This document shows positions 3,001 to 60,042 of a stretch of 64,000 nucleotides of DNA, piece after piece. A program made the translations under genes and the position numbers. Under the pieces are notes generated by a model. It was given only the letters and a program-made list of their open reading frames with translations. It had not been told where the DNA came from and searched no databases. Origin of the DNA: an uncultured Methanosarcinales archaeon. GTDB lineage: Archaea > Nanobdellota > Nanobdellia > Woesearchaeales > CAYSVS01. Position 1 is the stretch's first letter; each line of letters begins with the position of its first letter. The stretch is taken from the NCBI GenBank assembly GCA_964589485.1, contig CAZPRK010000001.1, positions 48,369-112,368 of the forward strand, in the 5' to 3' direction.

Positions 3001-6000
3001 CAGTAGGATATGAACGTTTAATTTTTGGATTTTCAGTTTCAACCAAAGGTCCATTACCAAAATTCCAAATATATGTTAAACTATCTCCATTTGGATCAAA
3101 AGATTCAGTAGCGTCAAATTCTATTTCTTCATTTGTTAAAGTGCTTACAGGTTTAACAATAACTTTTGCCTCAGGTGGTTCATTAAATATTTTTACATCA
3201 AATGGTTCATTAGATGTATCATATTTATCACGTACAGATAAAATAGCATGATAATCTTCATTTTTATATTCTGAATAAGAATGTTTAGCTACAGGGTCGC
3301 TTGAGAAATCTTTAATAGTATCATCTCCAAAATCCCATCTATATTCTAAGTCACTTTTATCTCCATCAGGGTCATAAGAACCAGAAGCATCAAAAGTAAT
3401 GTCAACATTTTTCTTATTAGTATTTACAAACTCTTTAAGTACTGCTACAGGTTTAATATTTTTCAAATCCAAAGATTTAGAATAAAAAGAAGTTGTATAC
3501 CTGTCATCTAATGTCAATTTAATTATATAATCTCCTTCAACACTAAAAGTCTTTTTCATAATATTAGTTGTAGAAGATTGTTTTACATCATTTATTTTCC
3601 ATTCATAAGTAATACTATCTCCATCAGAATCATAAGAACTAGAAGCATCAAAAATAATTTCATTATTTAATTTTTGTTCGCCATTAATTTCAAAATTAAC
3701 TGTAGGTTCTCTATTATTTATTCTTACAGTTTCAGTAAACGGTATTTCTGCATAATCATCAGCCACTGTTAAAGTTACTAAATAATCTTTGTTAAATTCA
3801 GGGAAAATATATGTATATTGTGAATCTTCAGAATAAGAAGTTTCTACATTACTTCCTATTTTCCATTTATAGTTTAAAGTATCTCCATCGCCATCAGAAG
3901 AACTAGAGGCATCAAAAGTAAGTTTATTCTTTTGATTAATATCAGGTGAATAAGTAAATTTAGGTATTGGGTTTTCATTTGTAAAAGATAAAGTTTGAGT
4001 TGTAGTTGAAGTAACATAACCATCATATACTGTTAATTTAACAGGATAACTACCAAATTCAGTAAAAGTATATTTATATTCTGAATTCTCAGAATAAGAA
4101 GTTTCTGCATTATTTCCAATTTTCCATTTATATTTTAAAGTATCCCCATCACTATCAGAAGAACTAGAAGCATCAAAAGTAATTTCCTGATTAAGTTTTT
4201 TATTACTTCTATCATGATTAAAGGAAGCAACAGGTTCTGTATTAGCTACATTTATTGTAAATGTTTTTGTTACTTCATCCCAATCATCTGAAACAGTTAA
4301 AACAACATTTTTTGATCCAGTGGTACTGAAACTATAACTTTTAATTGAATTACCTGGTTCATTATTCCAAGAGTAATATAAAGTATGACCATCAGAATCT
4401 GAAGACCTAGAAGCATCAAAAGTAATTTCTTCATCAGGCCTAACTGTAGTTGGAATATTATTAGTTTCTATAATTGGTGCAGTATTAGTAACAGTAACAA
4501 CAAAATTATCAGTATGCTCTCCACCTCTATCATCGGTTACAGTTAATGAAGCAGAATATTCACCTAAATCCAAATATGTATATGATACTTTTTTACCTTG
4601 CATATTTGGTTTATCTCCTTCTAACTCAGTATCGAACACCCACTTATATGTTTTAATTTCTCCATCTGAATCAGTTGAACTTCCGCCATCAAATTCAAAT
4701 GGTTTTCCAACAATTATATTTTTATCTCCGCCAGTATTTGCAACAGGCATAACATTAGGACGTAAAATTACTTGAACATTAAGTGTTTTAGAATTACTTC
4801 CTTCTCTATCATCAGTAACAGTTAATGTTACTGGGTACGTTCCAACTTCATTAAAAGTAAATGTAGGTTTTGATGTAGTTAAAATAACATCCCCAGGGAA
4901 ATTCCAATTATAAGCAACTATATTTCCATCATCATTATCGTAAGAACTTGTTCCATCAAATTCTATTGGGTTATTAATAAAAACTACTTTATCTCCAGTA
5001 ACTACAATTCCTTCACTAATAATATCACTTTGACTTACTAAGTCGCTTGATTTAATTGAAAATACAGCAGTAGGTAAAACATTAGGTTTTCTATCAACAG
5101 TAACTTTAATTATATCTGTCGAAGATAATCCTTCTTTATCAGTTACAGTTAATTCAATTTCTTTAACTCCCAATGTATTAAAAATATACTCAGGGTTAAC
5201 TCCTTCCATAATTTGTTCACCATTAAGTTTCCAAGTATAACTTAACTCATCATCTTCATCTGGATCTGTTGATGCTCCACCATTAAATTCAGCTTTATTT
5301 CCTAGATATACATTAAAATCTAAACCTGCTATTGCAGTTGGTGCCCTATTAGGATGGTTTACTATAACTTCATCTCCAAAACTAGACACTGCTCCTTTAC
5401 TATCAATTACATTCAAAAATACAGAATATATTCCAGCGTTATCATAAGCATGCACATTATTAACATCATTAGACTCAACATTATCTCCAAAGTTCCATGC
5501 ATGGATTAATTGATCACCATCAGTGTCTGTTGAAGTTGATGTAAATGTAACATCTTGTCCAATTAAAACTTCTCTTGGTTCAATTGTAAATTCTGATTTA
5601 GGAAATGCATTTATGCCTAACGATCTTTTTGATGGAACAAATTGTAAAGTACGTGTTCCCGTACCAACATCTGCAATTTCATCAAAAATTTCTTTAACAT
5701 CTGCATCATAATCTACTAACAATTTAATATGTTCCCATGCACCAGTGCTTGAATCTCTTGAATTATCTCCTTGATATTGATTATCCTCTGTTTTACACAA
5801 TACAGAATAAGATAACTCAGGAGAAATAGTTGGACAATATAATAAACATCTTGCATTATATTCATTTACATAACCCAAACAATCTTGTTTTTCATTTAAC
5901 CCAGGTTGAACAGAATGAAAAATAATTCTTTGATTTCCAATAACATCTTTTTCTAAAATAGGAGAAATTGTTAATTTAGTTAACTTATTCCTATCTTCAT

Positions 6001-9000
6001 CTTCAAAAACTAAAGTAGATTCAATTCTATATTGATCAGTATGTCCAATAATTTCAATAAACCCTATAAAGTTAGGATTTGAACCAGAAAGAAATATTTC
6101 ATTATTCCCGGCAAGTGAATCCCTCTCGCTTGCAATATTTGCTTCAACTGCTTCGTCTTCTAATTCATTACATAAATCCTCATTGCCTGAAGTAATGGCA
6201 TCAAATAAAACACAATCATTAGAACTAATTAATTTATTATCAGCTGAATCTATATGCTCTTGTGTACAAAATGAATCATCATTAATATATCCTGTACATT
6301 TATCTTTATAATCATCTAAAGTTAAATCTTTACATTGATCAACTTTATTATTTCTAATTGCTCTTAACAATAAACATTGATTTTGTTCTCCTTCTCCATC
6401 TAATGCCAAACAATCTTCTTTTTCTCCTAAATACATAGAAACGCATTCTTTAAATGGTTGATCTAATTCTTTTGGACAATATGCCTGAACATTAGCTTGT
6501 AACAATTCAGTAAAATCAATATTAGTATTTAGATTTTTACCAACGCCATTAAAAAGCTTAGCATAAGTAGAATCATATTCAAAATCAGTAAAATCATGTT
6601 GACATGTAACTTCTTTATTTGCAGTAACTTGAACATTTGTTGATAAAGTAGATAATTTAAATTCTCCAGGACTCACACTATATTCTAAAGACTCACCAAG
6701 ATTACATATTCCATCATTATCATCATCTTGTCCATCATTTGAAACATCTTTTTTACCTGCTACGCTACAATCGTCACAAGTATCTAAGTCAAAATCTCCG
6801 CAAACAAATTTATTTAATGGATCTATATCGTTTTCATCATCCACACCATCATTATCATCGTCATTATCAGGATAAATAGGATTAAAATAATCTAGAGGTT
6901 CATCACATAATCCATCTCCATCAGTATCCGGATGATATTCATGTTCAGAAGAAACTTTTCCATCTGTTATTGAAAATCCAATTCCTTTTCCACAATCATC
7001 ACAACCATCGTTATCAAAATCACCACAAATTGTATAATCATCGTCATTTTCATCAAAATAAGTATCATATTCACAATCAGTAATATTAGTTCCTCGCTTT
7101 CCTAATCCATCTCCATCTACATTTACACAACTTTTTCCGCTAGAATCACAGTTTCCATCTCCATCAAAATCAACTCCATCTTGATCAGGATCAAATCTTC
7201 CTAAAAAAGAACAATCATCACAACTATCTTCATCAGAATCTCCACAGAAATAAATATCTTTACTATAATCTACACCATCTTTATTTTTATCATTAATATC
7301 TAATACACCATCATTATCATCATCTTTATCAGTATTAGTAGCTGAAGGATAATCTTCAGGATCATCACATAACCCATCCCTATCAGTATCAGGCCAAGCT
7401 TCACTTCCACCATCTAATTCATTTGCCACTAAATTATTTTTATTTACAACTCTTATTACTCCAGCTCCACAATCATCACAACCATCATTATCTATATCAC
7501 TACACACTAAAGGATTTGTATCATCTTTATCTAAATCTTCATCTACTCCATCATTATCTCCATCATCATCACATACGTCACCTTTTAAAGTTACTCCAGG
7601 AACTCCATCTTCAGGTTCAAAGTCTTCATCAGAATTAGTTTGATCAAAATTCTTAGTACGCGGACAATTATCTGGACCTGCATTACATTTACATCCACCA
7701 TCTTTAATTAATATTTCTTGTTTACTTAAATCAGGACATTCTTTCAAATATCCATCATTTTCACCATCACAAATCCCATCTCTATCAGAGTCAGGCGTAC
7801 AAACATTTTCATCATTATTATCTCCAAAAATACATATTCTAGATGTAGTTTTTTTATGTTCCCCTAAATCTGTGATAGTTAATAAAGTTACATCTACATA
7901 TCCATCTTGATCACCATACACATTACTTGCAGTTAAAGAAAACTTTCTTCCTTTTTGTTCTCCCTTAACTTTTTCCTTTGTATCAAAATCCCAATAATAA
8001 CTTTGAATATTAGGATCTTCTTCAGCTTCAAAATAAATTTCAGCATCTTTAGCAAAAGAAACGCCATCAATTGGTGAAGTTATTACAGCTTTGGGTTCTT
8101 CTCCTGATTCCTCTATAGAATTTAATCTTAATTTAGCAGTCATATCTAACCAATTTTCAAAAGCATCCATATCATAACTAAAAACATTATAATTTAATTT
8201 TAAATTTTTTTCTTGCGGCAAACATAAAAAATCTACATTATCATTTTGTAAATCATATTTTAATACAGCATCACAAACATCAGCATTAAATCCAGAATAT
8301 TCAACTGTTAAAAATTCACCAATTTCATTTTCATTTTTTTGCACACTTTGTTCTAAAGCTGCAAAAACTTTATTTTTATCATTCCCAGCGGAATAAAATC
8401 TTACAAAATTTTTAATTTCGTTAACAAAACTAATATCTTCTTCACCAAAATTTATAGGTCTTACAAATAATCTAATAAAATTTACAGCAGCATCTGCTGG
8501 GCTTTTAAAAAAAGAAGTAAATAAAGTAGCTAAATTAGTTGATTGTAATTTAATTTCAGAATGTTGTGAAAAAATTAATGTTTTTAATTCTGCATCATAC
8601 CACACTTTTTTATTATTATTACATATTTTAAACCCATTATTTTTAACATTTGAACATAATTCTTCATCTAAATTTAGTTTAGTCAATATTTGACCATCTG
8701 TATCAATATCATCGTTTAAAGAAACCCCTGCAGCAACATCAAAAATTCCATTATCATTTTTATCATATTTTAAAACACAAACATTATTCATTGGTTTATC
8801 TACAGAATTATAATAATCTTCTAAACCAGGAACATCTTCTAAACTATTTACAACTTTATTTAATTCATCACAATGAATGGAGTATTTTGTTCCTGCTAAA
8901 TCAAGTAACTGGTTTGCTACAACTTTAGTTCTAGTAGTCCATTTTCCTTTTTCACAAAAATGATCTCCATCTAAATTATTTATTGATCCACTATTTTTAT

Positions 9001-11857: not shown

Positions 11858-11967
11858 CCTTTATAACCTCTTTTATATGATATATTATATTTTAATAATT
11901 AATTTATATATAAACCTTGTGATTTAAAATATAATTATTTATATAGAAATTATTTATCCTTTATCGA

Positions 11968-12654
11968 ATGAAAAGTATGTTTATAGAATTAATCAAAAAA
12001 CTGTTAAATAAAGATATTATTTCAAAAGAAGATTTAAGAGCATTAACTGAAACTAAAGATTTAACTGAAGAATTTGTAAAATGGTACAAAGATTTAGGTT
12101 TTGAAACTCTTTTTCAAAGACAAATGACATTAACCAAATGTCCATTTACAAATGAAGAAATAGAAATTGCAAAAAATAACCAAGAATTTATAATTGCAAT
12201 CCCAAAAAATATTACAGCTAAACAATTTTCTGAATTATTTAGAATTGAATCAGTTCACAATTTAGATGATAAATTAATTCAATTTACTAAAGAAACAGAA
12301 GATACTTGGGTTAAAGTTTCAAGTAAAGACATTCCTGATTTACTTAATCATTCGTTTACCCAAATTAGAAATAAATTTGAAGAAGAAAATAAAGTTGGAA
12401 TGAATCTTCCAAGATATTTAGTTTTTGTTGCTTGGTTTTATAAAAAAAACAATACATACCCTGACATGAATTATTGGAATTACTTAATCGGAAGTAAATA
12501 TGATAAATCAGGAGTAATGATAGCTGGTTTTGACGATAAAAACAAAAAACTAAATTTACATGGTTGGAAAAAAAATCATCCAAATGAAACCTGGCTTGGT
12601 GCAAGATATGCTAAACATCCAAGTAGAATTGAAGTAAGAAAAGAAACTATCTAA
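11968..12654 (+). CDS. Hypothetical protein, 228 aa
   Basis: Complete ORF diverging from the giant gene; no motif recognised. Confidence 0.45.
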   Translation: MKSMFIELIKKLLNKDIISKEDLRALTETKDLTEEFVKWYKDLGFETLFQRQMTLTKCPFTNEEIEIAKNNQEFIIAIPKNITAKQFSELFRIESVHNLDDKLIQFTKETEDTWVKVSSKDIPDLLNHSFTQIRNKFEEENKVGMNLPRYLVFVAWFYKKNNTYPDMNYWNYLIGSKYDKSGVMIAGFDDKNKKLNLHGWKKNHPNETWLGARYAKHPSRIEVRKETI

Positions 12655-13714
12655 GATCTTTAAAATAAACATTTTTACCATCTAATTTAATTTGTTCATG
12701 TGAAATTTTCACTTTCAAATCCATTTTTTTAAAATAATTATTTAACTCAAATTCATTATTTTTTTCATTTAAAAATAAATATAATTTATCTTCATAATTT
12801 ACATCTTTTTTTATTACAAATAAAAAAGGACAATTTACAATATTTCCTACATTATTAATTAATTCTTGTTTACTATACAAATCTCCAAATAATTTAATTA
12901 AATCTCCTTTCCGTTTAATAAAAGTAAAATATCCTTTTTCTAACTTAACATAATCTCCTGTAATGTATCTAACCAAATAAGTTGATTGATTAAATGGATC
13001 TGTAATAACTAAGTCACCTTCTCCTTCAAAAGATGAATTACCATCAATATCTACAACTTCATAAATTAAATTTGAAACTAATTTAAACTTATTAGAACCT
13101 GAAATTTCTTCAATTCCTATGGCTCCGAATTCACTCATCCCGAAACCATTATACACTTTAACATTAAATGTTTTTTCTAATTTTTCACGAAACCAAGAAT
13201 GCAAATATTCCCCGCCAACTATAACTTTTTCCAAAGAGTTTAATTTTAATTTATTCAAAATATTAAATGCTGTTTCAGTTGTTAAAATTGCCATTTTAGG
13301 ATTTAAACCCTTAATAAAAGCTAAATCTAACCAAGTTTTTTCAAAATCATTTCCTAATGGCAATAAAGTACAATTAAAAAATTTAGATGCATATTCAACA
13401 TCTATTCCGGCTTGCCCAAAAGAATAACTGAAATGATTCAAAAAAACACCAGATAACCCAAATATTTTAAAAATTTCAACATACCGTTTAATTATAGCTT
13501 CTTTTCCTTTTTCATCAACATAAACTAAAGATGAAGTTCCAGTTGTCCCACTTGACATTTGAATATATTTTGGAGCTAATAAACAAGTTTCAAATGACCA
13601 TTGTCTTAGATCTTGTTTTGTCATTAAAGGAAGATTTTTAAGTTCATTTAGACTAAATAATTCTTTCTTACCATACAATTTTAAAATATTATTTAATGAA
13701 TTTAAATTATCCAT
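12647..13714 (-). CDS. Adenylate-forming enzyme, phenylacetate-CoA ligase (PaaK) / coenzyme F390 synthetase-like
   Basis: MSSGTTG phosphate-binding motif (S/TSGTTG) and PaaK-like size. Confidence 0.55.
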   Translation of the reverse strand: MDNLNSLNNILKLYGKKELFSLNELKNLPLMTKQDLRQWSFETCLLAPKYIQMSSGTTGTSSLVYVDEKGKEAIIKRYVEIFKIFGLSGVFLNHFSYSFGQAGIDVEYASKFFNCTLLPLGNDFEKTWLDLAFIKGLNPKMAILTTETAFNILNKLKLNSLEKVIVGGEYLHSWFREKLEKTFNVKVYNGFGMSEFGAIGIEEISGSNKFKLVSNLIYEVVDIDGNSSFEGEGDLVITDPFNQSTYLVRYITGDYVKLEKGYFTFIKRKGDLIKLFGDLYSKQELINNVGNIVNCPFLFVIKKDVNYEDKLYLFLNEKNNEFELNNYFKKMDLKVKISHEQIKLDGKNVYFKDLR

Positions 13715-13750: not shown

Positions 13751-14671
13751 TTAAATATTTAATAAATCTTGACCAATAAAATCTTCTTGAAATGTTCTTG
13801 GAACCGCCTTAGCAGTATTACAAGTTTGTTTTAATCCTTCATTTTCCACAACTGAACATACTGATTTTGTTTTCATAGTACTAGCAAAAAATGCATACGA
13901 TAAATCATCTACCCATAGTTTATACATAGATTCATAATTATCTCCACTAAAAACCCTACACATATAATGTGCACCACCATCAAGCTGATCACATAATTTT
14001 TCATTATTTAACAAATAATTAACCCATGCTGCATAAGATTTACAACCTACGTCTTTACAAACACTCAAATCTCTTGAAGTTATAGCTTTACATAAATCAG
14101 TTGTACATTCTGAACTTAACTCAAAACAAGTTTGTTTTATTTCAGAAGATTCTATATTATCACAATTTAAAGAAACTAAATTATTTACATCTTGTTTAAT
14201 TTCTTCAGCTTCTTCACATTCATGTTCATTATGGTGTAAATCATTAGTTTTTAAACAAGAAATATATTCATTACTTCCTTCTTTACACTCTTCACTATAC
14301 AAATCTTCATGAGAAACTTCTACAGGAGTAACTGAATCATGTAAATAAAAGTCATCACCTAAATATTCTCTAGAAACATAGTATTCTTTTATAATGTTTC
14401 CACAATTTTCTGATGTAGAAAAAACTTTTGCCCTTAAATCAAATTCAGAATTTAACAAAACAGTTCTTTGAATTTCTTCTTTAGAATCATGAAGAATTTT
14501 TAATCCTACTGCTGCATCAGTAGTCCCACTTTCACTAAGATATAATTCTACTGCCTTTTTCTCTTTAGCATCAGCATAATTTAATTCAATAGATGATGAA
14601 GGTAAGTAAATTCCAATAAAAACTATAATTAACAGTAACCCTAAAAGAATGTAAATATTTTTTTGTTTCAC
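13751..14671 (-). CDS. Membrane-anchored, Cys-rich (about 16 Cys) acidic extracellular protein
   Basis: N-terminal hydrophobic anchor IYILLGLLLIIVFIGIY followed by an acidic, Cys-rich domain. Confidence 0.5.
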   Translation of the reverse strand: MKQKNIYILLGLLLIIVFIGIYLPSSSIELNYADAKEKKAVELYLSESGTTDAAVGLKILHDSKEEIQRTVLLNSEFDLRAKVFSTSENCGNIIKEYYVSREYLGDDFYLHDSVTPVEVSHEDLYSEECKEGSNEYISCLKTNDLHHNEHECEEAEEIKQDVNNLVSLNCDNIESSEIKQTCFELSSECTTDLCKAITSRDLSVCKDVGCKSYAAWVNYLLNNEKLCDQLDGGAHYMCRVFSGDNYESMYKLWVDDLSYAFFASTMKTKSVCSVVENEGLKQTCNTAKAVPRTFQEDFIGQDLLNI

Positions 14672-14709: not shown

Positions 14710-15663
14710 TTAGATAAAAGAAAATAATATTATCAAAACCATAGAAAATCCAAAATAAGGAGCAAGAGGTAATTCTTGAGATATTTTTAACTTTTTTATG
14801 CCCCATTCTTTTATTTCTTTTATTTCGTTATAATCTAAACCTTCACTTCCTTCAACATATAAAAGTTCATATCCAGAAGCTTGTTCTTTATTATTAAAAA
14901 AAAATATTTTATTATTCTTTCTAGCAATAATATCATGAACCATCATTCCTGGCTTTAAATCAATACTATTAACTTCATAAAAATCAGAAGTTAATAAAGT
15001 TTTAAAATAATCAAACAATAAATAAAATATGAAAGGATAAATTACCCCTCTAAATAAATAAGCACTATAATCATTCACAATTATCAAATTTATTATCACT
15101 AAAATAAAAGTAAATTTACGATAAGATAAAAATTTTCTCAAAAAAGAATTTGTAAAAAAAATGAGAGATAAAAAAAGACTAAATGCTAAATACATATAAT
15201 TATTTAACTCAAAAAAATAATTAAACCCAAAAAATATTAAAAAAATAAGCTGAAAAAAACTAAAATAAAGTAACAATATGGGTAATGAAAAAGTATTTTT
15301 TAATTCAGATATTTTATTATTATAAATTAATTTAATAAGAACTAATAAAGACGGAATTATTAGCCCTATTAATATAACTAATAACATAGGAAAGTTATTA
15401 TTAACTAAAAAAGAAGGAATTCCTAATGCATAAACCATCAATAATTTTGAATCCCCTGCTGGAATTAACCCAGACATCCATAAAAGTATTGCAAAAACAA
15501 ATGTAAAAATAAAATTAAATAAATATTGTGGTGTATATTCTGCTAAAATTAAAAATAATATAGCAAAAATAACCAAATGAACATTTTTTACTTTATGTTC
15601 CTTAATATCAGTATAAGAAGTTAATATAATAAACAACAATAAAGTTAAAATATTTAATATCAT
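14710..15663 (-). CDS. A24-family aspartic prepilin/preflagellin peptidase-like polytopic membrane protein with C-terminal soluble extension
   Basis: Polytopic membrane protein. SYTDIKEHKVKN fits the first catalytic Asp motif (D...R/H..PN) and IPAGDSKLL fits the second (GxGDxKL) of PibD/FlaK/PilD peptidases. Confidence 0.55.
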   Translation of the reverse strand: MILNILTLLLFIILTSYTDIKEHKVKNVHLVIFAILFLILAEYTPQYLFNFIFTFVFAILLWMSGLIPAGDSKLLMVYALGIPSFLVNNNFPMLLVILIGLIIPSLLVLIKLIYNNKISELKNTFSLPILLLYFSFFQLIFLIFFGFNYFFELNNYMYLAFSLFLSLIFFTNSFLRKFLSYRKFTFILVIINLIIVNDYSAYLFRGVIYPFIFYLLFDYFKTLLTSDFYEVNSIDLKPGMMVHDIIARKNNKIFFFNNKEQASGYELLYVEGSEGLDYNEIKEIKEWGIKKLKISQELPLAPYFGFSMVLIILFSFI

Positions 15664-15697
15664 AAAAAAAAGAACTTACTTAATAATTTAAAGTTTA

Positions 15698-15928
15698 CTA
15701 ATAACTGCTATGATTTGCATGATTAACATGGTGACTATGAGATGTAGAAATAGAATTATCACCAGGAGTTACTGCTACACTATTTTGATGACTAGTAGTT
15801 CCAGCAGACGCTTCTTGCGAAAGTACAAAAACTAACCCAGTTGCTATGGCTGCATCTAATAATCCTTTCTTGGATACACTTGCTTTTTCACTTTTTAAAA
15901 AAGAACTTACTTTTCTTACTAATTTCAT
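15698..15928 (-). CDS. Small pilin-like protein with putative class III signal peptide and His/Ser-rich C-terminus (76 aa)
   Basis: Basic N-terminus ...SKKG followed by hydrophobic LLDAAIATGLVFVLS. C-terminus is TSHQNS..SHSHHVNHANHSSY. Lies immediately upstream of the A24 peptidase and diverges from a radical SAM/SPASM gene. Confidence 0.45.
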   Translation of the reverse strand: MKLVRKVSSFLKSEKASVSKKGLLDAAIATGLVFVLSQEASAGTTSHQNSVAVTPGDNSISTSHSHHVNHANHSSY

Positions 15929-16015
15929 TAATTAAAAATAACAAAATCTAATTTATAAATTTTTCTATTAGTTACAACACAAAACTTAATATATACAACT
16001 AAAAGCCTAAATTAG

Positions 16016-16981
16016 ATGAATAAACCTTTAGATTTAACTCTCGAAATCAACAATAAATGTAATTTAAAGTGTAAACATTGTCAAATTTGGAAAGAACGTC
16101 CATTTTATGAATTAAATATCAACGAAATTAAAGATACAATAACTAAACTAAAAAATAAATATTCAGAAATAACTAATATTTCATTAACAGGTGGAGAATG
16201 TTTCTTAAATAAAGATATTGAAAAAATCATAGTATTATTAGCTAAATTACAAACTAACAATATCATTAAAGAATTTGATTTAGTTTCGAATGGATTTTTT
16301 TATGATAAAATTAAAGACATTTTCATCAGAAATAAAGAATTAATAACCAAATCTAAATTTTCAATAGCATTTAGTGTTGACGGTTTAAAAGAAAATCATA
16401 ATAAACAAAGAGGAAATCCAAAAAGTTTTCAAGAATTAGAAAAAAGTATTGATTTTTTTATAACTAATTTCCCTAACATTAACACTTCGGTTAAATTTAC
16501 TGCAACTAACATAAATTATAAAGATACATATAATCTATTTCTTTGGTGTAAAAATAAAAACATTAATTTTGCACCAAAAATAGTAGAATTTGGAACTAAT
16601 AATTATTACCATAGAAATGGAACTTCTGAGTTAAATGAAAACACTCAAGAAATGATAGAATATATGAAAAAAGTTTTTCAAAATTTATTAACTGAACCAT
16701 TAGTAGAAAAAAAAGGGATTAAACTTCATTTAGATTACTTAAATACGAATAAATTTTGTAAAAATAGTTGTTATACTCCTTGGCAAAGTTTATTTATTGA
16801 TTCTAGAGGTAAAATTTTTCCTTGTATTTATTATGACCCTATTACTAACATCCATGAAAATAACTGGGAATTTAAAATTAACAATCAAGAACATAAACAA
16901 TTAATTGCAATGGGTCTTAAGAAAACATGTAAAGGATGTCTTGCATATCATGGGTTCTTAAAACCATATAATTTAAAATGA
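16016..16981 (+). CDS. Radical SAM enzyme with C-terminal SPASM-like Cys cluster
   Basis: CNLKCKHCQ (CxxxCxxC); C-terminal cysteines CKNSCYTPW...PCIYY...CKGC. Confidence 0.75.
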   Translation: MNKPLDLTLEINNKCNLKCKHCQIWKERPFYELNINEIKDTITKLKNKYSEITNISLTGGECFLNKDIEKIIVLLAKLQTNNIIKEFDLVSNGFFYDKIKDIFIRNKELITKSKFSIAFSVDGLKENHNKQRGNPKSFQELEKSIDFFITNFPNINTSVKFTATNINYKDTYNLFLWCKNKNINFAPKIVEFGTNNYYHRNGTSELNENTQEMIEYMKKVFQNLLTEPLVEKKGIKLHLDYLNTNKFCKNSCYTPWQSLFIDSRGKIFPCIYYDPITNIHENNWEFKINNQEHKQLIAMGLKKTCKGCLAYHGFLKPYNLK

Positions 16982-17652
16982 TAATTATACGAAATGACGA
17001 TGTTGGATTAGAAAATAAAACTTTTATTAAATTTAATAATTGGATTAATGAATTAAACATTCCATGTACTTACGCAATCATACCATATTATATCAATAAT
17101 GAATTAAAAAATAAAATAAGTAAAAATATAGAAATAGTTATGCATGGATATAAACACAAAAATTATAGTAACAATGAAATTAAATACGAATTTGGAGATT
17201 CAAGAAATTATGAACAACAATTACATGACTTAACTGAAGCAAATAACATTTTTGAACATCATTTTCCGAATCAAGAAAAAATATTCATTCCTCCTTGGCA
17301 TAAAATAAATCAAGATACAATTAAAGCGTTAAATAAACTAAATTATAATAAAATTAGTCTATCTTATTTAGAAAAAAAACAAAAAACTCCTTTTCAAATT
17401 AGTTGGATTCATATTATTTTTCATCCAAAATTAACTAAAAAGAAAGACCTTCCTGAATTAATAAAAAAAATTATAGCTTTATGTCAAAATCAATGGTATG
17501 TGGGGATTAATATGCATCATCATTTTATGACTAATAGGGAAGAAGAAGAAACGACTAAATTATTCTTAGAATTAATTAAACAAATTTCAATAAAATATAA
17601 CATAAAATTAGGAAAAGTTACTGATTCATACAATAATCACGAACAGAATTAA
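16978..17652 (+). CDS. CE4 (NodB)-like polysaccharide deacetylase family protein, divergent
   Basis: RNDDVG (motif 1, DD), HGYKH (motif 2, HxxxH), IPPW (motif-3-like). Confidence 0.4.
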   Translation: MIIIRNDDVGLENKTFIKFNNWINELNIPCTYAIIPYYINNELKNKISKNIEIVMHGYKHKNYSNNEIKYEFGDSRNYEQQLHDLTEANNIFEHHFPNQEKIFIPPWHKINQDTIKALNKLNYNKISLSYLEKKQKTPFQISWIHIIFHPKLTKKKDLPELIKKIIALCQNQWYVGINMHHHFMTNREEEETTKLFLELIKQISIKYNIKLGKVTDSYNNHEQN

Positions 17653-18703
17653 CAACTAAATTTAATTCTTCATCAGGTAAAAAAGGAGATAATGGAAGAT
17701 GCACACCTTTTTTTTCATATTGCAAAGCTACATCTAATCCTTGAACATCTTGCTTAAATAAATTTAATGAAGTTAAACATTTATAAGACGGATCTAAATC
17801 AATATCTTTTCCTCTTAAATAAGTTCTTAATTTTTCTCTTTCATCTAACTCAATAACATAATGCTGCCTGATAGACTCAGCATACGTGGGATCTTTTGTT
17901 ACTTTAACAACGTCACCTAATTCTTTTTCATAAAAATTTTGCATTTTTAATTTAGATTTTCTAAGTAAATCAAAAACTTTAATTTTTACATTAATATTTG
18001 CCAACTCCAATAAACTTAACCTTGCAGCTGCACGTCCAAAATCCAAAACTGATAAATTATCATTTTCAATATCTAGCATTCCCGGAACTTGTGATGCAAT
18101 TTCATCATCATCATAAACAATACATCCTCCAGTATATCCTGGAACATTTTTATGCATAGTAAAACTAAATGCAGCTACATCGCTAAATTGACCAGTTAAT
18201 TTACCATTGTAAGTACTTCCGTGACTTTGGCAACAATCTTCTACTATTTTCAATCCATGTTTATTTGCAATTTCTTGAATTGCATCCATGTCACAAACAT
18301 GTCCAAACATGTGAACTGGAAGAATTGCTTTTGTTTTAGAAGTAATTTTACTTTCAATTTTAGTATGATCTATAACATAATATTCATTTGCATCTATAAA
18401 TATTGGTTTAGCTCCCAATTCTAATATTGGTAAAGCTGTTGCATAATATGTTAATGCTGGAACAATTATTTCATCTCCAGGTTTAATCCCAATTAATGTT
18501 AATGCTAACTTTAAGGCAGTTGTACCTGAATCTACAAATTTACAATGTCTTCTTCCAATAAAGTTACTCATATTTTTTCCAACTTGAACTTCATATGCTT
18601 CATGATCATGTAAACTCATTAAATCTAATACTTTATCAAACTCAGAAATCAAATGTTTCTTAATTAATTTATTTATCCTTAAATCTGTCGTGTATAAAGT
18701 CAT
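17618..18703 (-). CDS. DegT/DnrJ/EryC1/StrS-family PLP-dependent sugar aminotransferase
   Basis: FSFTMHKNVPGYTGG (SF..K PLP-lysine region), DSGTTAL, and overall architecture. Confidence 0.8.
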   Translation of the reverse strand: MTLYTTDLRINKLIKKHLISEFDKVLDLMSLHDHEAYEVQVGKNMSNFIGRRHCKFVDSGTTALKLALTLIGIKPGDEIIVPALTYYATALPILELGAKPIFIDANEYYVIDHTKIESKITSKTKAILPVHMFGHVCDMDAIQEIANKHGLKIVEDCCQSHGSTYNGKLTGQFSDVAAFSFTMHKNVPGYTGGCIVYDDDEIASQVPGMLDIENDNLSVLDFGRAAARLSLLELANINVKIKVFDLLRKSKLKMQNFYEKELGDVVKVTKDPTYAESIRQHYVIELDEREKLRTYLRGKDIDLDPSYKCLTSLNLFKQDVQGLDVALQYEKKGVHLPLSPFLPDEELNLVVNSVRDYCMNQ

Positions 18704-19814
18704 TTAATAATTCCTCAGTTTTTTCTAATCCCATAAACCATTCAAAGTTTATTGTAGTTTCTTTATTTCTAAGTAAATCTAATTCTGCTTTTATAATTTC
18801 TGGTTCAATTTCGGCAAATTCTATAACTCTAGACCCAAGTATATCTTTTAACATATTGCATCTGTAATACTGTTCTTGATCTATATTTTTTGGTTTAGGA
18901 ATAAGTAAACTTTTAGTTTTATTTGTATATAATAATTGGACTCCTGTACCATACCCACACATACTTACTGAAAATTCAGATTCTGATAAAGTTCCAGTAA
19001 ATTCTTTTTGATTTAAATGTGTATGAAGTACTAACTGTCCATTTTTAATTTGATCTAAATATTTTAAATTTATTTTATTAAACAATTCATCTTCAGATGA
19101 AATTCCTAAAACTAAAACTATTTTTAAATTTGTCAACAAACATCCATCTATAAGTTTAAAAATATATTCATCTCCAACAATTCCACTTCCCCTTGTAATC
19201 ATTATTTGATTAATAACATTATTACTCAAAGTAGAACCTATTGGTAAAATATAATTTGTAAAATATACATTTTTTCTGTTAGATAAATAATCCAAAGTTG
19301 CAGACTTTCCAAAATATTGTCTAATATATTTAGGATCTAAATCTTCAGGACAATGAATTAATATTGCATCATAAAATTCATCAACAATTTTATTTTTATC
19401 TTCTCCGTAAAACCCTAAAGGATATCCTAAACTACAAACAATTTTAGTATTGTTTGACTTCAATTTTTTTAATAAAGGAATCAATTCATATTTTAATTCT
19501 ACATATTGAAAAGGAAAAGATAATATAATAACAATATCTGGATTAAAGTTAATAACTTCTTTAAATAATGTTAAAACTCTAAGTTTCATTACTTTTGTAT
19601 TTACAGTCTTATACAAAAAATCATGTAAAGTTGCTTTATTATGTAAAGGAAAAGGCATATTAATTAAATTATATTCAGATAAATCTAAATTAAATTTAGG
19701 ACCAGCATTAATTATTTTAACTTCATTTTCTTTAGAAAGATGTTTAGCAATACTTAATACTCTTTGAGTTTCACCCAAAGTTTCTGCATGGGTAAAATAA
19801 ATTAAACATTTCAT
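18669..19814 (-). CDS. GT-B fold protein, PseG/MurG (GT28 C-terminal)-like
   Basis: C-terminal SMCGYGTGVQLLYTNKTKSLLIPK resembles the GT28 C-terminal domain; N-terminal ETLGETQRVLSIAKHL resembles PseG/MurG. Confidence 0.4.
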   Translation of the reverse strand: MKCLIYFTHAETLGETQRVLSIAKHLSKENEVKIINAGPKFNLDLSEYNLINMPFPLHNKATLHDFLYKTVNTKVMKLRVLTLFKEVINFNPDIVIILSFPFQYVELKYELIPLLKKLKSNNTKIVCSLGYPLGFYGEDKNKIVDEFYDAILIHCPEDLDPKYIRQYFGKSATLDYLSNRKNVYFTNYILPIGSTLSNNVINQIMITRGSGIVGDEYIFKLIDGCLLTNLKIVLVLGISSEDELFNKINLKYLDQIKNGQLVLHTHLNQKEFTGTLSESEFSVSMCGYGTGVQLLYTNKTKSLLIPKPKNIDQEQYYRCNMLKDILGSRVIEFAEIEPEIIKAELDLLRNKETTINFEWFMGLEKTEELLNDFIHDRFKDK

Positions 19815-19815
19815 T

Positions 19816-21201
19816 TTAAACCCAATTATTTTTTAACCAATGAGAATATGATTGTTCTAATGCTATTTTTTCAAATAAATATGTATATTGAAAAGAATGA
19901 ACTTTATGTGTAAATGTTTCTGTAATTGAAGGAATAGGATTTTTAAATTGTTGATATACTGAAACTTGATCTATACCCATATAAGCTCTAAATGGAGAAT
20001 AATAATAAAATAAATCAGTAAAACTAGACATCCAAAATGCAAGTAAATCGTCATTAGTAAAAACTTCTTTGGCATCCATATCTACTGTTCCAATCTTAAA
20101 AGTGTCATCAGTATACATCCTTCCTTCATCTGAAAAATATAACCCACCATCAAAATTATAAACCATAACTGTCCTCCCGCCAGATGAAAAGTTAGTTAAA
20201 TCAACATATAAAGGATCTTTTTCTGCAATTAATTTACGTAATTTAATATGAGCACCACGTTCATTTACTTCAATCCCTTTAGCATTTAATTCAGAAATAT
20301 AATCCATTGCTTCTTTCCAAAATAAATTAAAATCATCTGCAGAATAAGATAAATTATCCCAAGTTGTTAATGCATCTCCTAAACTATTTAATGGTCTTAG
20401 GTGAATTGACTGTATACCCAATCTTACATATTCATCTATTATTTCTTTTGGATATTTTAAAGAATTTTTAGAAATTGTTGCCAATACTCCAACAAAAGGA
20501 TTAATTCCTCTTTTTTTTTGTTCTTCTTTCACCATTTCTATTTTTTGAATTACTTCATCATAACTTCCTTCTCCAGTTGCAGTTTTTCTATGGAAATTAT
20601 GAACTTCTTTAGGACCATCTAAAGATGTACAAATAGATACATCATTATCTAAAAAAAAATCTAATTTTTCTTTATCTAAAAGTCCTAGATTTGAAACAAT
20701 AGTAATAACCATATTTTTTTTAATGGTTTGATTTAATTTTCGTAAATGAGTAATTATTAATTTAACAGTATTCCAGGCAATTAAACATTCTCCCCCTTGA
20801 AACTCAATTGTTGGAGAATCATTACTATTTTCCATTATCCATTTAACTACTTTCATCGCTACATCTTCTTTCATTAAACTTCTTCCACGACTAACTCCAG
20901 CATGACAATATGTACATCTTTGATTACAAGTATCAGTTACATTAATAATATGTAAACTTGGTTTAAAAAATAAATTTTTATTCAAACTACGATAAGTATT
21001 AACTATATTTTTAGTATTATTTTCATCAATAATAATTCCGCTTTTAATTAGTTTAGTTTGTAAATCTAAATCATAAGAAAAAGTTTTTAATTTTCTCAAC
21101 TCTTCTTTATCTAAAATAGTCCAACCACCAAAATATCCATTTACTACAAATTTATCTTTACTTACTTCTTTTTGAGTGTAAGGTAAAATACGTTCATTCA
21201 T
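19816..21201 (-). CDS. Radical SAM enzyme (single CxxxCxxC, no obvious SPASM), anSME/AslB-like
   Basis: VTDTCNQRCTYCHAG; GGECL motif. Confidence 0.75.
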   Translation of the reverse strand: MNERILPYTQKEVSKDKFVVNGYFGGWTILDKEELRKLKTFSYDLDLQTKLIKSGIIIDENNTKNIVNTYRSLNKNLFFKPSLHIINVTDTCNQRCTYCHAGVSRGRSLMKEDVAMKVVKWIMENSNDSPTIEFQGGECLIAWNTVKLIITHLRKLNQTIKKNMVITIVSNLGLLDKEKLDFFLDNDVSICTSLDGPKEVHNFHRKTATGEGSYDEVIQKIEMVKEEQKKRGINPFVGVLATISKNSLKYPKEIIDEYVRLGIQSIHLRPLNSLGDALTTWDNLSYSADDFNLFWKEAMDYISELNAKGIEVNERGAHIKLRKLIAEKDPLYVDLTNFSSGGRTVMVYNFDGGLYFSDEGRMYTDDTFKIGTVDMDAKEVFTNDDLLAFWMSSFTDLFYYYSPFRAYMGIDQVSVYQQFKNPIPSITETFTHKVHSFQYTYLFEKIALEQSYSHWLKNNWV

Positions 21202-21400
21202 TTTCTCTCACCTTAGCCAAAACATAATTAGCAAATTCAAACGGTAAAATTGAATCATCTTTAAATTCTATAATAACAAAAGAATCTTCTTCAACTAAAC
21301 TTACTTCATATTCTTTTTTAAACTCAAGCATAGTTTCCAAAATATATTTTTTTGGATAAAATTCTAAAGAAAGTTTAATTTTGTGAGACATCTTTCTCAA
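21194..21400 (-). CDS. Small hypothetical protein, 68 aa
   Basis: ORF overlapping the start of the downstream radical SAM gene by 8 nt (translational-coupling arrangement). Confidence 0.3.
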   Translation of the reverse strand: MRKMSHKIKLSLEFYPKKYILETMLEFKKEYEVSLVEEDSFVIIEFKDDSILPFEFANYVLAKVRENE

Positions 21401-21758
21401 CTTCTTCTAATAATTTATTTATTTCTTGTTCTTCGGCATCTTCAACTAATTTTGGTGAAGCTGAAAATAAAGCTCTTTGTAAAACTGCATTTATTACATC
21501 TTTATTTTGTTCAAATTGATTAAAATAATTAGTTATTGAAATTAAGTCATTAAAAAATCGTTGAGCAGTTTGATCTAGATTTACGTCTTTTTTTGGTTTA
21601 ATTTTCACAATAACTTCATCATTTAAATTTCCATCTAATAAAACATAAAAATCATCCAAATAAACATAAGTAGTAGCATATATATTTTTCAAAGAATACA
21701 TTTTTGGATTTAATGTGATTATTAAAGCATTATTTTCAATTTTATAGTCTGTTGTCAT
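21375..21758 (-). CDS. Hypothetical protein, 127 aa
   Basis: ORF in operon position upstream of the 68-aa ORF and the radical SAM gene. Confidence 0.4.
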   Translation of the reverse strand: MTTDYKIENNALIITLNPKMYSLKNIYATTYVYLDDFYVLLDGNLNDEVIVKIKPKKDVNLDQTAQRFFNDLISITNYFNQFEQNKDVINAVLQRALFSASPKLVEDAEEQEINKLLEEVEKDVSQN

Positions 21759-42584: not shown

Positions 42585-43113
42585 ATTAGATTTTATAAAT
42601 AAAAGAAAAAATTTATCAAATATAGAAATAGCTTCAAAAAGTAATAAAATAATAATTAATTTAAAAAATTTAGACTTAATTAAAAAAGCAAAAAACATTT
42701 TTATTTATGCTTCAAATAAATATGAAGTACAAACTTTAAATTTTATAAAAGATAATTTAATTAAAAAAAACATATTTTTACCTTTTAAAGATGAATTAGA
42801 GAATGTATACCAAGTACAAAATATAAATGAATTAATTTTTGATTCTAGGGGAATATTACAACCAATAAAAAATCAACCATTATCTTTAAGTAATATTGAC
42901 ATTTTTGTTATTCCAGGAGTTGTTTTTGATAAAAAATTCAATAGAATAGGACACGGGAGTGGTTTTTTTGATAAGTTATTAAAAATAATAAATAAACCTA
43001 AAGTTGCTTTAGCTTATAAATTTCAAATTATTAATGAAATTCCAAATGAAAAACATGATATTGAAATGAATTACATTGTTAATGAAGAAGGTGTGTTAAA
43101 AAATGATAATTGA
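42568..43113 (+). CDS. 5-formyltetrahydrofolate cyclo-ligase (MTHFS)
   Basis: About 180 aa with GHGSGFFD-type motif. Confidence 0.65.
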   Translation: MKNQLRLDFINKRKNLSNIEIASKSNKIIINLKNLDLIKKAKNIFIYASNKYEVQTLNFIKDNLIKKNIFLPFKDELENVYQVQNINELIFDSRGILQPIKNQPLSLSNIDIFVIPGVVFDKKFNRIGHGSGFFDKLLKIINKPKVALAYKFQIINEIPNEKHDIEMNYIVNEEGVLKNDN

Positions 43114-49278: not shown

Positions 49279-49375
49279 AATTAAAGAAATAGTTGACTTT
49301 ATTTAAACTTTTCTCATGTAAAATAAACAAAAGGATATATAGGACGTTTATAATATATGAATAAAAAAGTAGTAT

Positions 49376-54170: not shown

Positions 54171-54184
54171 TATAATTTCCTCTA

Positions 54185-59283: not shown

Positions 59284-59346
59284 AAAAACACCTTACTTTA
59301 GGCTTTAAACTTCTTTATTTAAAGATTATTCTTGTTGAGAATATAG

Positions 59347-60018: not shown

Positions 60019-60042
60019 AAACTTATACTTTGTTTAGTATAC

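Follow-up and report, generated by a model that had tools for sequence, protein, structure and literature searches.

A locus of approximately 9 kb, located at roughly 12.6-21.8 kb of the 64,000 nucleotide stretch of DNA analysed here (the window), probably encodes a His-Xaa-Ser (HXS) system for peptide maturation in an archaeal form, with a dedicated prepilin-type peptidase that removes the leader of the substrate peptide. The host is an archaeon, with MCM, TBP, Cdc6 and PolD encoded in the window. At one end of the locus lie the three genes on which a preliminary description of this DNA had centred, coding for a 76-aa peptide (15698..15928, minus strand), a 317-aa peptidase (14710..15663, minus strand) and a 321-aa radical SAM enzyme (16016..16981, plus strand). 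All three open reading frames were confirmed, as were the divergent gap of 87 bp between the peptide and radical SAM genes and the quoted strings SYTDIKEHKVKN, IPAGDSKLL and SHSHHVNHANHSSY. The suggested link to the families HxsA-D is borne out by the presence of HxsD, HxsD-like (HxsD_rel) and HxsB-like genes at 19816-21758, 4-6 kb from the peptide gene and beyond the region previously described, and by a weak HxsA3 match for the peptide itself.

HXS is an anti-phage system of E. coli and Klebsiella, comprising HxsD-HxsB-HxsC-HxsA; when it was characterised in 2026, no other defence had been reported to act by keeping phage DNA out of the cell (Li et al., Nat Commun 2026, PMC13128918). The His-Xaa-Ser system is attributed to Haft and Basu. 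[quoted passage not shown] The window resembles this system in that it encodes an enzyme matching HxsB over its full length, HxsD, and a substrate that combines an export signal at its N-terminus with a His-x-Ser-type tail at its C-terminus, the E. coli substrate likewise being N-terminally processed and acting outside the cytoplasm. It differs in lacking HxsC, in encoding an extra small HxsD-like protein and a dedicated A24 peptidase where the E. coli system comprises four genes, in its different and interrupted gene order, in its archaeal host, in the loss of the HxsB SPASM cysteines and in its substrate, which at only 76 aa cannot accommodate a peptidoglycan-binding domain. PADLOC 2023 models returned only generic viperin-type radical SAM matches in the window, and Rfam and tRNA scans of the window gave no matches.

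The 76-aa open reading frame is a genuine gene. Ten nucleotide differences separate it from its counterpart in a diverged strain (L006), all ten synonymous and none non-synonymous, and it is thus under strong purifying selection; the adjoining genes show 43 synonymous and 33 non-synonymous, 47 and 16, and 39 and 19 differences, respectively. A family profile built from 152 relatives, with the window peptide left out, scores the peptide at 55.5 bits (E=1.1e-16) in an end-to-end alignment, its sole match among the 353 open reading frames of at least 40 aa in the window. Of the two features by which the preliminary description proposed to judge this gene, conservation is thus present, whereas a ribosome-binding site is not: no Shine-Dalgarno sequence precedes the start codon, and a TATA-box-like element, TTTATAAA (15952..15959, minus strand), instead starts at -31 from the ATG. 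This element probably serves as an archaeal promoter of the leaderless type. A TTTAWAWA or TTTATA motif that begins at -28 to -32, without a Shine-Dalgarno sequence, is found in 9 of the 37 window genes, the peptide gene and eight other promoter-proximal genes, MCM among them, while internal operon genes carry GAGG/AGGT instead. The peptidase gene lacks both a TATA-like element and a Shine-Dalgarno sequence of its own, and a run of eight T (15664..15671, minus strand) directly before its ATG, in the 34-nt spacer that follows the peptide stop codon, is possibly a partial archaeal terminator or attenuator. A sigma-70 promoter scan, whose model is irrelevant to an archaeon, yielded fewer sites than shuffled sequences and was discarded.

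The encoded peptide comprises a basic leader (MKLVRKVSSFLKSEKASVSKKG), a short hydrophobic segment (LLDAAIATGLVFVL) of about 14-18 residues, an ASA|G site, an HQN motif and the C-terminal tail (SHSHHVNHANHSSY), and contains one strict H-x-S triplet (HSS) and two H-x-N triplets (HVN and HAN). In a word-indexed search for homologues, the 76-aa peptide on its own retrieved nothing but itself; relatives were reached by profile searches started from two members found by eye in loci seeded with the peptidase. Profile comparison places the peptide, as a divergent member, in a family that comprises several hundred small proteins and is related to NCBIfam HxsA3 and HxsA4. An exhaustive profile search gave 329 cluster representatives at E<=1e-10 and 907 at E<=1e-3, the latter an upper bound since one of two long multi-stretch matches (P0029, 2131 aa, the other being P0170) proved on inspection to be a repeat-protein false positive, and the leader and His motifs are both present in 118 of the 144 new representatives listed. 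The family is characterised by a leader with the consensus [IL]PK[IL]KKK..F[LI]..E[ED]GKISK, after which come an h-region, the motif H[TS]N and a tail of the form HxHH..HSS with W or Y as its last residue, an architecture which both the profile and regular-expression motifs recover in the window peptide. Two glycine residues are near-invariant (97% and 94% at columns 20 and 31), the former preceded by acidic residues; the window peptide has alanine at both columns.

The NCBIfam HxsA3 model (NF038309) aligns over the full length of the window peptide at 16.7 bits (E=0.0046; curated cut-off 65), the leader region of the family corresponding to the N-terminal half of the model, while the canonical HxsA model (TIGR03979) gives no match. 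Relatives match HxsA3 at about 29-31 bits, or at E=7e-13 for the best of them, and none of those scanned reaches 65 bits. Of 19 family members, 17 match HxsA3, 12 HxsA4 and five canonical HxsA. Of the catalogued variants HxsA3, HxsA4 (NF038313), HxsD_rel (NF038315) and HxsC4 (NF038332), the window thus shares an HxsA3-like leader and an HxsD_rel protein that passes its cut-off.

The HxsB-like radical SAM enzyme (461 aa; 19816..21201, minus strand) matches TIGR03978 at 329.7 bits (E=2.8e-98; curated cut-off 370) over model positions 2-460 of 466, by far its best family, the next-best NCBIfam matches being radical SAM families of RiPP systems (PapB, SCIFF, CcpM and similar); related enzymes exceed the cut-off at 427 bits (L007) and 454 bits (L010). 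Upstream of it are encoded the 68-aa HxsD-like protein (21194..21400, minus strand), which matches HxsD_rel at 41.8 bits against a cut-off of 41 and has a small open reading frame at the same position between HxsD and HxsB in related loci, and the 127-aa HxsD (21375..21758, minus strand), which matches TIGR03976 at 34 bits (E=2.8e-8; cut-off 50) and whose identical gene in another record (L001) matches Pfam HxsD (PF27806) at E<=1e-5. Neither HxsC nor an HxsC4-like enzyme was detected in the window. The HxsB-like protein retains the CxxxCxxC motif (C92, C96 and C99), while all seven C-terminal SPASM cysteines are lost, being replaced by S, S, Y, S, M, D and H, and it may therefore be catalytically altered or inactive. 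Among 31 HxsB homologues, 21 retain all seven cysteines and three lack the last one alone.

The loss of these cysteines, the lack of HxsC, the scores below the curated cut-offs, the replacement of the invariant glycines in the peptide and the five sugar-type genes that separate it from HxsB could together indicate a degenerate remnant, that is, a decaying HXS-type locus split by an unrelated glycan-biosynthesis insertion and whose three genes no longer cooperate. Such decay is improbable given the purifying selection on the peptide, the intact peptidase, 321-aa radical SAM and Cys-rich protein genes with their excess of synonymous differences, and the full length of all the open reading frames. 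Furthermore, partial SPASM loss is also observed in the HxsB of four of the five closest relatives of the window enzyme (L034, L040, L058 and L062), and one of these, the distant bacterium L040, likewise has Hxs genes interspersed with sugar-type genes of the same kinds.

The 317-aa protein is a GxGD aspartyl peptidase of family A24, belonging to an EppA-like, Arc_PepC-bearing subfamily. The assignment to A24 in the preliminary description is upheld by a Pfam Peptidase_A24 match (PF01478; 28.7 bits against a gathering cut-off of 26.5), in which residues 7-102 align with model positions 2-101 of 104. The predicted catalytic residues are Asp19 (SYTD) and Asp71 (AGD); D19 (S-x-T-D) and G70-D71-x-K-L are invariant in seven homologues and align to the motifs of FlaK, with which the protein also shares a polytopic fold. 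A soluble, beta-rich domain at approximately residues 225-297, with an LKPGM motif, is followed by the last transmembrane helix after P-x-A-P, and the C-terminal domain is alignable across homologues, with LKPGM and PxAP invariant. This domain had been considered unusual; it is indeed present, but corresponds to the known Arc_PepC domain (PF06819) annotated on homologues (P0006-P0008, L070 and L072). The window peptidase itself has no Arc_PepC match at E<=0.1 and no NCBIfam match, EppA (NF053826) included, while two of the seven homologues match EppA; apart from such weak EppA matches, NCBIfam holds no model for an HXS-associated peptidase.

Compared to the known archaeal A24B peptidases FlaK (PDB 3S0X), EppA and PibD, which are linked to pilin or archaellin operons, the subfamily of the window enzyme is linked to radical SAM and Hxs genes. 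Two of its homologues (P0004 and P0006) adjoin HxsD/HxsB. HxsB, HxsD or the leader is encoded within 10 kb of the peptidase in 35 of 50 GTDB loci seeded with the peptidase alignment and in 28 of the 35 loci with strong peptidase matches; of these 35, 20 have HxsD within 500 bp. Reciprocally, an A24/Arc_PepC gene lies within 10 kb in seven of eight loci seeded with the peptide. Two peptidase-Hxs modules (L027 and L057) occur together in a single MAG (BS150m-G66), the peptide-then-peptidase order of the window recurs in L072, and in L010 an HxsC4-like enzyme adjoins the peptidase. Carriers of the system are labelled as Woesearchaeota, Aenigmatarchaeota, Nanoarchaeota, Omnitrophota and Patescibacteria. 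This gene combination had been termed undescribed in the preliminary description; HXS, HxsA3/A4, HxsD_rel and Arc_PepC are already catalogued, but neither a systematic link between HXS and A24 peptidases nor an archaeal/DPANN distribution of HXS was found described in the searchable literature.

An EppA/FlaK-like peptidase adjoining a peptide with a basic N-terminus, a glycine and a hydrophobic stretch also recalls a minimal type IV pilus-like filament, in which a tiny pilin with a class III signal (KKG|LL...) is processed by the A24 enzyme and assembles into a surface fibre, the adjoining radical SAM genes having no part in it. Archaeal pilins can be very small, as in the case of EpdE of M. 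maripaludis. This reading, raised in the preliminary description, appears highly improbable. Neither an assembly ATPase nor a platform protein (PF00437 and PF00482) is encoded among the scanned window open reading frames of at least 100 aa (11968-62280, with a few omitted) or in 11 Pfam-annotated related loci, the tail is low-complexity His/Ser without a globular domain, and the linkage to HxsB/HxsD is conserved across phyla. The KKG motif, followed by approximately 14 hydrophobic residues, is present as had been claimed, but the alignment column of its glycine varies across the family (S 41%, N 16%, K 16% and A 12%); on this alignment, KKG is not a conserved cleavage motif.

Prepilin peptidases cut class III signal peptides at the cytoplasmic face of the membrane, and the candidate A24 cleavage sites predicted in the window peptide are A20|S, G26|L and A31|I. 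The putative substrate differs from those of FlaK, EppA and PibD in its long, strongly conserved 23-residue leader, with acidic residues before the best-conserved glycine, which are unusual for archaeal class III sites (PibD/FlaK substrates). Most family members also have an AxA-like site after the hydrophobic segment, so that signal peptidase I could process the peptide and the A24 enzyme could have another role. The N-terminus would then be the extended n-region of a Sec-type signal, and signal peptidase I would cut at ASA|G, freeing a 33-aa soluble modified peptide; the A24-like protein would be a signal-peptide peptidase for the remnant, an export or scaffold partner, or an enzyme with another substrate. 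The short hydrophobic segment, nearer to the h-region of a signal peptide than to a pilin anchor, is consistent with such a route, as is the placement of A-x-A directly before the conserved H[TS]N motif in many members (EASA|G in the window peptide). AxA occurs 6-30 residues after Gly31 in 94 of 175 members, compared to 75.9 +/- 4.8 in shuffles, none of 200 of which reaches this count, although the shuffle control ignores sequence kinship. Sec-type secretion is nevertheless considered rather unlikely, as it leaves the tight reciprocal linkage of the GxGD peptidase and the peptide unexplained, and the near-invariant glycines lie N-terminal to or inside the h-region, where A24 enzymes cut.

The 321-aa radical SAM enzyme, with a SPASM/twitch-type C-terminus, is matched by the models Radical_SAM (65.9 bits) and SPASM (22.5 bits against a cut-off of 21.5), in agreement with the preliminary description. 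That description's RiPP-like reading, with a His-Xaa-Ser peptide matured by a radical SAM enzyme and processed by the peptidase, is essentially right, but it named the wrong radical SAM partner: the partner that co-occurs with the peptide and peptidase is the HxsB-like enzyme, and a close homologue of the adjacent 321-aa enzyme is found in only one of 50 related loci (L040, 149 bits). The latter is matched best by generic NCBIfam families (PapB, 70 bits), with neither HxsC nor HxsC4 in its top 25, any such match having an E-value above 4e-8; as judged from these matches, it is an accessory enzyme and not an HxsC orthologue. A metagenome scan with this enzyme recovered the same strain and two loci at approximately 25% identity and is silent on its role, since neither of these loci contains Hxs or sugar genes.

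Its gene is translationally coupled, through a 4-nt stop/start overlap, to that of a DUF2334/polysaccharide-deacetylase-family protein (224 aa; 16978..17652, plus strand) with homologues in L040, L034 and L055. Convergent with this pair is the gene for a DegT/DnrJ/EryC1-family sugar aminotransferase (361 aa; 17618..18703, minus strand; Pfam, 243 bits), homologues of which occur in L062, L034, L023 and, in two copies, L040, where DegT is likewise convergent with the homologue of the 321-aa enzyme. A GT-B-like glycosyltransferase (381 aa; 18669..19814, minus strand) is encoded directly downstream of the HxsB-like gene; it has a weak GT28 C-terminal domain (PF04101, E=0.0027, below the cut-off). 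L040 encodes two homologues, scoring 92 and 81 bits, and PF04101 matches one of them at 42 bits. The 381-aa protein was considered as a cryptic HxsC and rejected, as it is GT-B-like and contains no radical SAM motif. One other locus contains the complete block of all four genes. In DesII/DesI and BtrN/BtrS, a radical SAM enzyme and a DegT-family aminotransferase form sugar-tailoring pairs, which the association of the 321-aa enzyme with DegT, the deacetylase and the GT-B-like protein may parallel. These four proteins may constitute an accessory block inserted between HxsB and the peptide, and might make or attach an amino-sugar or otherwise tailor the product.

Downstream of the peptidase are encoded a 306-aa protein (13751..14671, minus strand) with an N-terminal transmembrane helix and a Cys-rich ectodomain, which has no Pfam or NCBIfam match, and a 355-aa PaaK/F390-synthetase-like adenylate-forming enzyme (12647..13714, minus strand; Pfam AMP-binding, NCBIfam PaaK-like). 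Transmembrane, Cys-rich proteins also follow the peptide in L013 and L015, with similarity to the 306-aa protein only at E ~0.01 by BLASTP and no phmmer match; these scores give no statistical support for a conserved component of the system, and the protein is at most a possible, weakly linked accessory. The 355-aa enzyme, with homologues inside the matching clusters of the nearest relatives L008 (68 bits) and L012 (78 bits), is a possible accessory.

In the proposed HXS-type maturation system, the basic conserved leader of the 76-aa substrate would remain cytoplasmic, in keeping with the positive-inside rule, while the hydrophobic segment would span the membrane and the His/Ser/Asn-rich tail would lie outside the cell. 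By homology with the E. coli system, the HxsB-like radical SAM enzyme would act with HxsD and the 68-aa HxsD-like protein to modify the tail before or during export. The EppA-like A24 peptidase would be the dedicated processing enzyme, most likely cutting the leader at the cytoplasmic face, as its fold and conserved gene linkage suggest. By analogy, the matured product may be an envelope-level antiviral factor, for which metal binding by the His-rich tail is an alternative function of like candidacy.

In a bolder and less probable reading, an A24 peptidase has been co-opted to remove the leader of a radical SAM-matured HXS peptide, that RiPP-style leader doubling as a class III signal. The system would then be an envelope module, widespread and shared horizontally among archaea and bacteria that are ultra-small and depend on hosts, and its product a modified, possibly glycosylated His-rich surface peptide with an antiviral or host-interaction role. 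Against the HXS-type maturation system as proposed here stand the lack of HxsC and HxsC4-like enzymes in the window, the scores of HxsB, HxsD and the peptide below the NCBIfam cut-offs, the missing SPASM cysteines and Gly20 and Gly31, and the atypical acidic residues before Gly20; the antiviral analogy also derives from a single E. coli study of an effector with another architecture. The system resembles radical SAM/SPASM RiPP systems such as PapB, SCIFF and CcpM in its small precursor, conserved leader, repetitive core, nearby maturase(s) and leader protease, while its product, unlike theirs, is probably membrane-associated or surface-displayed. Leader removal by a membrane GxGD prepilin-type peptidase was not found described as a RiPP strategy in the literature searched.

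An HXS-related system with a different and much smaller substrate is thus widely found among DPANN archaea, and also in certain Omnitrophota and Patescibacteria, consistently accompanied by its own membrane aspartyl peptidase of the prepilin-peptidase family and able to gain numerous additional enzymes of the radical SAM and sugar-handling kinds. Should the peptidase indeed remove the leader, this would represent a new leader-removal route for radical SAM-modified peptides and a new role for A24 peptidases outside pilus biogenesis, and its recruitment would hint at which type of protease the E. coli HXS model lacks. It would also offer an experimental entry point to defence at the level of the envelope, or to interactions with metals or hosts, in organisms not yet grown alone.

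The three open reading frames (ORFs) singled out in the preliminary description, coding for a 76-aa peptide (15698-15928, minus strand), a 317-aa protein (14710-15663, minus strand) and a 321-aa protein (rSAM321; 16016-16981, plus strand), are present together with the motifs quoted for them. The 317-aa protein is indeed an A24 peptidase (Pfam Peptidase_A24, 28.7 bits; gathering score 26.5), while rSAM321 matches Pfam Radical_SAM and has a SPASM C-terminus. Further genes of the His-Xaa-Ser (HXS) type are located beyond them. A 461-aa HxsB-like radical SAM protein (19816-21201, minus strand) matches the NCBIfam HxsB model over its full length (E=2.8e-98; 329.7 bits against a cut-off of 370), a 127-aa protein (21375-21758, minus strand) matches NCBIfam HxsD, and a 68-aa protein encoded between these two exceeds the NCBIfam HxsD_rel cut-off. 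The three genes therefore constitute one end of a locus spanning at least 14710-21758, which may extend to a PaaK-like ligase at 12647. Four genes, coding for a GT-B-like protein, a DegT aminotransferase, rSAM321 and a DUF2334/polysaccharide-deacetylase, separate the HxsB-like gene from that of the peptide, with the rSAM321 and deacetylase genes, the start of the latter overlapping the stop of the former, on the opposite strand from the GT-B-like and DegT genes. Cys-rich membrane-anchored proteins sharing a D/N-x-S-x-C...I spacing are also encoded behind the peptide or peptidase in three loci, namely the window (13751-14671, minus strand), L013 (10373-11104) and L015 (3018-3665), their similarity being marginal (E about 0.01 to 5e-4).

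A ribosome-binding site and conservation had been named as the marks by which the 76-aa ORF could be recognised as a gene; the former is missing, but the latter is evident. All ten substitutions separating this ORF from its counterpart in a diverged strain are synonymous, in a setting where DNA divergence of the neighbour genes is 6-9%, with 43 synonymous and 33 non-synonymous changes in the peptidase gene and 47/16 and 39/19 in other neighbour genes. The peptide is thus under purifying selection. No Shine-Dalgarno sequence occurs upstream of the ORF, as is usual for first genes in the window. Two classes of signal are discernible window-wide: a promoter-proximal TTTAWAWA (or TTTATA) box whose first base lies 28-32 nt ahead of the ATG, unaccompanied by a Shine-Dalgarno sequence and found in nine of 37 window genes including MCM and the 76-aa ORF, and GAGG/AGGT at -10 to -15 in operon-internal genes. 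The position of the former box implies leaderless mRNAs for the promoter-proximal genes. The peptidase gene follows the peptide after a spacer of 34 nt, the final eight of which are all T, and has neither a TATA-like box nor a Shine-Dalgarno sequence of its own; it is therefore probably co-transcribed with the peptide. The all-synonymous changes, the promoter-type signal normal for first genes and the peptidase gene closely behind it together identify the 76-aa ORF as a gene.

A word-based homologue search with the 76-aa peptide as query recovered only the peptide itself, and its first relatives came from loci seeded with the peptidase. A three-sequence profile yielded 20 further relatives. 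At E<=1e-3, exhaustive profile searching gave 907 cluster representatives, a number that includes at least one false positive (a long repeat protein); 329 of them score at E<=1e-10. Among 144 newly listed representatives (median length 103 aa; W or Y as last residue in 54%), the leader motif is present in 131, the His-repeat motif in 128 and both in 118. The consensus over 175 unique members comprises a leader, [ILF]-P-K-[IL]-K-K-K-[IV]-x-[SA]-F-L-x-x-E-[ED]-G-K-I-S-K-x-x, a hydrophobic segment including a Gly conserved at 94%, in many members an AxA-like site, then in general the motif H-[TS]-N with a variable linker behind it, and a tail of G-x-H-x-H-H-x-[SN]-H-S-S-H... or CHSS repeats. When the 76-aa peptide was left out of the profile, it still scored 55.5 bits, in an alignment spanning leader to tail, and nothing else in the window was matched. 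The NCBIfam models HxsA3, HxsA4 and canonical HxsA match 17, 12 and five of 19 family members, respectively, with none of the scanned members reaching the curated HxsA3 cut-off; the match of the 76-aa peptide to HxsA3 is weak and full-length. By its sequence the peptide is an outlier within the family, with Ala at both near-invariant Gly columns (20 and 31) of the alignment.

The same leader is found in long fusion proteins in L057 (3959-5365), L044 (2504-4174), L059 (5727-7037), L031 (13395-15341) and L033 (19581-20168). In one type the leader and His motif are followed by a (TST)n linker and a C-terminal domain starting GCPF[LV]AVWNG, and in another the leader protein carries a Hint/intein-like domain (CLPGGTKV...VHN), while in L031 and L033 the leader is preceded by a fused HxsD-like region. 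Three HxsA3-like peptide genes (114, 99 and 114 aa) occur in tandem on a single contig in L071 (8304-9580).

Seven relatives of the peptidase were recovered in a word-indexed search, with identities of 25-31% save for one strain variant. Invariant among them are S-x-T-D and G-D-x-K-L, LKPGM in the soluble domain and P-x-A-P ahead of the last helix. Several match Pfam Arc_PepC and two of the seven match NCBIfam EppA, while the top PDB sequence match of the peptidase is FlaK, with both catalytic motifs aligning. The first homologues inspected adjoin HxsD, a small HxsD-like ORF and an HxsB above its cut-off. A scan with the peptidase alignment, restricted to one genome per GTDB species, yielded 50 loci, by record titles mostly from Woesearchaeota, Aenigmatarchaeota or Nanoarchaeota with some from Omnitrophota and Patescibacteria; the titles of L016, L021, L028, L041 and others look inconsistent with their content, making such automated MAG labels unsuitable for judging taxonomic spread. 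Titles such as 'uncultured Cytophagia', 'Methanosarcinales' and 'Saccharibacteria' sit on low-GC contigs bearing the DPANN-type module. Using custom profiles derived from the first loci, HxsB, HxsD or the peptide leader was detected within 10 kb of the peptidase in 35 of the 50 loci; for the 35 loci with a strong peptidase match the figure is 28, and in 20 of these 28 HxsD lies within 500 bp. The most frequent order is peptidase, HxsD, HxsD-like, HxsB, peptide. One MAG contains two such modules (L027 and L057), and L072 shares with the window a peptidase gene directly behind that of the peptide. Reciprocally, an A24/Arc_PepC gene occurs within 10 kb in seven of eight peptide-seeded loci, the remaining one being at a contig end. 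Peptidase, HxsD/HxsD-like/HxsB and peptide are thus linked to one another in a conserved and reciprocal way across phyla. Of the two functions envisaged in the preliminary description, a pilus-like filament locus is unlikely, as the 11 Pfam-annotated related loci encode neither the ATPase nor the platform protein of a pilus or archaellum. The HXS reading is supported by the nearby HxsB-like, HxsD and HxsD_rel genes and by the peptide-peptidase linkage, with corrections that include the part given to the adjacent rSAM321.

A close homologue of rSAM321 is found in only one of the related loci (L040, 149 bits), the other matches being generic radical SAM proteins; it is not the conserved partner of the system, and, L040 aside, the anticipated co-occurrence of three genes holds for the peptide and peptidase only. 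L040 is a bacterial locus (YidC is encoded). Its own peptidase, HxsB, HxsD and a peptide with the C-terminus ...HTNHASY are interspersed with homologues of the DegT, GT-B-like and DUF2334 genes. DegT is shared with L034 and L062 (Omnitrophota) and DUF2334 with L034 and L055, and such Omnitrophota-type loci account for four of the five proteins closest to the window HxsB and four of the seven closest to its HxsD. The sugar-type block thus seems to be no chance neighbour but an accessory gene set belonging to a sub-variant, a view resting mainly on L040. The combination of radical SAM, DegT aminotransferase, deacetylase and glycosyltransferase recalls amino-sugar pathways.

The window HxsB-like protein retains CxxxCxxC, while its SPASM region has other residues in place of all seven cysteines. 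Among 31 homologues all seven are present in 21 and only the last is missing in three, while three are kept in L024, L034, L040, L058, L059 and L062, in a graded loss. No HxsC or HxsC4-like enzyme is encoded in the window. Either the chemistry differs in this locus, or another enzyme compensates, possibly rSAM321 with its SPASM/twitch-type end. Extra radical SAM genes reach a density of five to seven per 20 kb in L010/L016, L013, L015 and L040; they include B12-binding and methyltransferase-fused types and an HxsC4-like enzyme divergent from the peptidase in L010.

In the mechanism proposed here, the basic leader would stay cytoplasmic and the tail would pass to the outside, modification of the tail would fall to the HxsB/HxsD proteins, and the A24 peptidase would cut off the leader on the cytoplasmic side. 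The KKG of the 76-aa peptide, previously suggested as a class III cleavage site, is not upheld, since its glycine column is variable across the family. The near-invariant Gly of columns 20 and 31 would most naturally provide the -1 residue of the cut. The sequence around the former, E-E-G|K-I-S, loosely resembles K-G|Q-[IV]-S, at which EppA substrates are cut. Signal peptidase I may, however, also cut, or cut instead of the A24 peptidase, as AxA sites are enriched after the hydrophobic segment (94/175 versus 75.9 +/- 4.8 in shuffles), which counts against a simple prepilin model.

The window (G+C ~25%) is archaeal DNA, encoding MCM, TBP, Cdc6/Orc1, both PolD subunits and TrmB; a 306-kb scaffold from a marine metagenome carries the identical sequence. 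The MCM gene (27984-31382, minus strand; 1132 aa) includes an intein with a LAGLIDADG endonuclease domain, while the syntenic genes of the relatives L008 and L012 code for 680-685 aa without intein domains. A near-complete de novo purine pathway occupies 41268-61134 (PurD, MTHFS, FolD, PurB, PurA, two PurP-like DUF1246/DUF1297 proteins, GuaA, PurH, PurF, PurL, PurM and a 754-aa fused PurQ-PurC-PurE), which is unexpected if the host is a DPANN archaeon, as suggested by the Nanobdellota label on its nearest labelled relative. A giant ORF with many PKD repeats (2-11860, minus strand; at least 3953 aa, running past the left window end, and 4211 aa in the full scaffold), presumably a surface protein, starts ~110 bp from a 228-aa gene adjoining the locus.

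In E. coli, HxsD-B-C-A blocks phage DNA entry, with HxsA processed N-terminally by a non-canonical route requiring HxsB, HxsC and HxsD and showing a +8 Da change on an SHRSS motif, and 99.7% of HXS systems are reported in Pseudomonadota (Li et al., PMC13128918). The window locus resembles that system in having an HxsB-like enzyme, a probable HxsD and a His-x-Ser-type substrate predicted to be exported, but differs in lacking HxsC and an HxsA-type effector, in gene order and in its sub-threshold scores; it is better placed in an HxsA3/HxsA4-like variant class than with E. coli-type HXS. The gene combination had been considered undescribed. The existence of variants is known, HxsA3, HxsA4, HxsD_rel and HxsC4 being already catalogued in NCBIfam, but in the literature searched no paper was found that connects Hxs genes with an A24 peptidase or that reports the system from DPANN archaea. 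More broadly, His-Xaa-Ser systems with radical SAM enzymes form a large family in ultra-small archaea and bacteria that has a dedicated prepilin-type peptidase, a finding that is directly testable.
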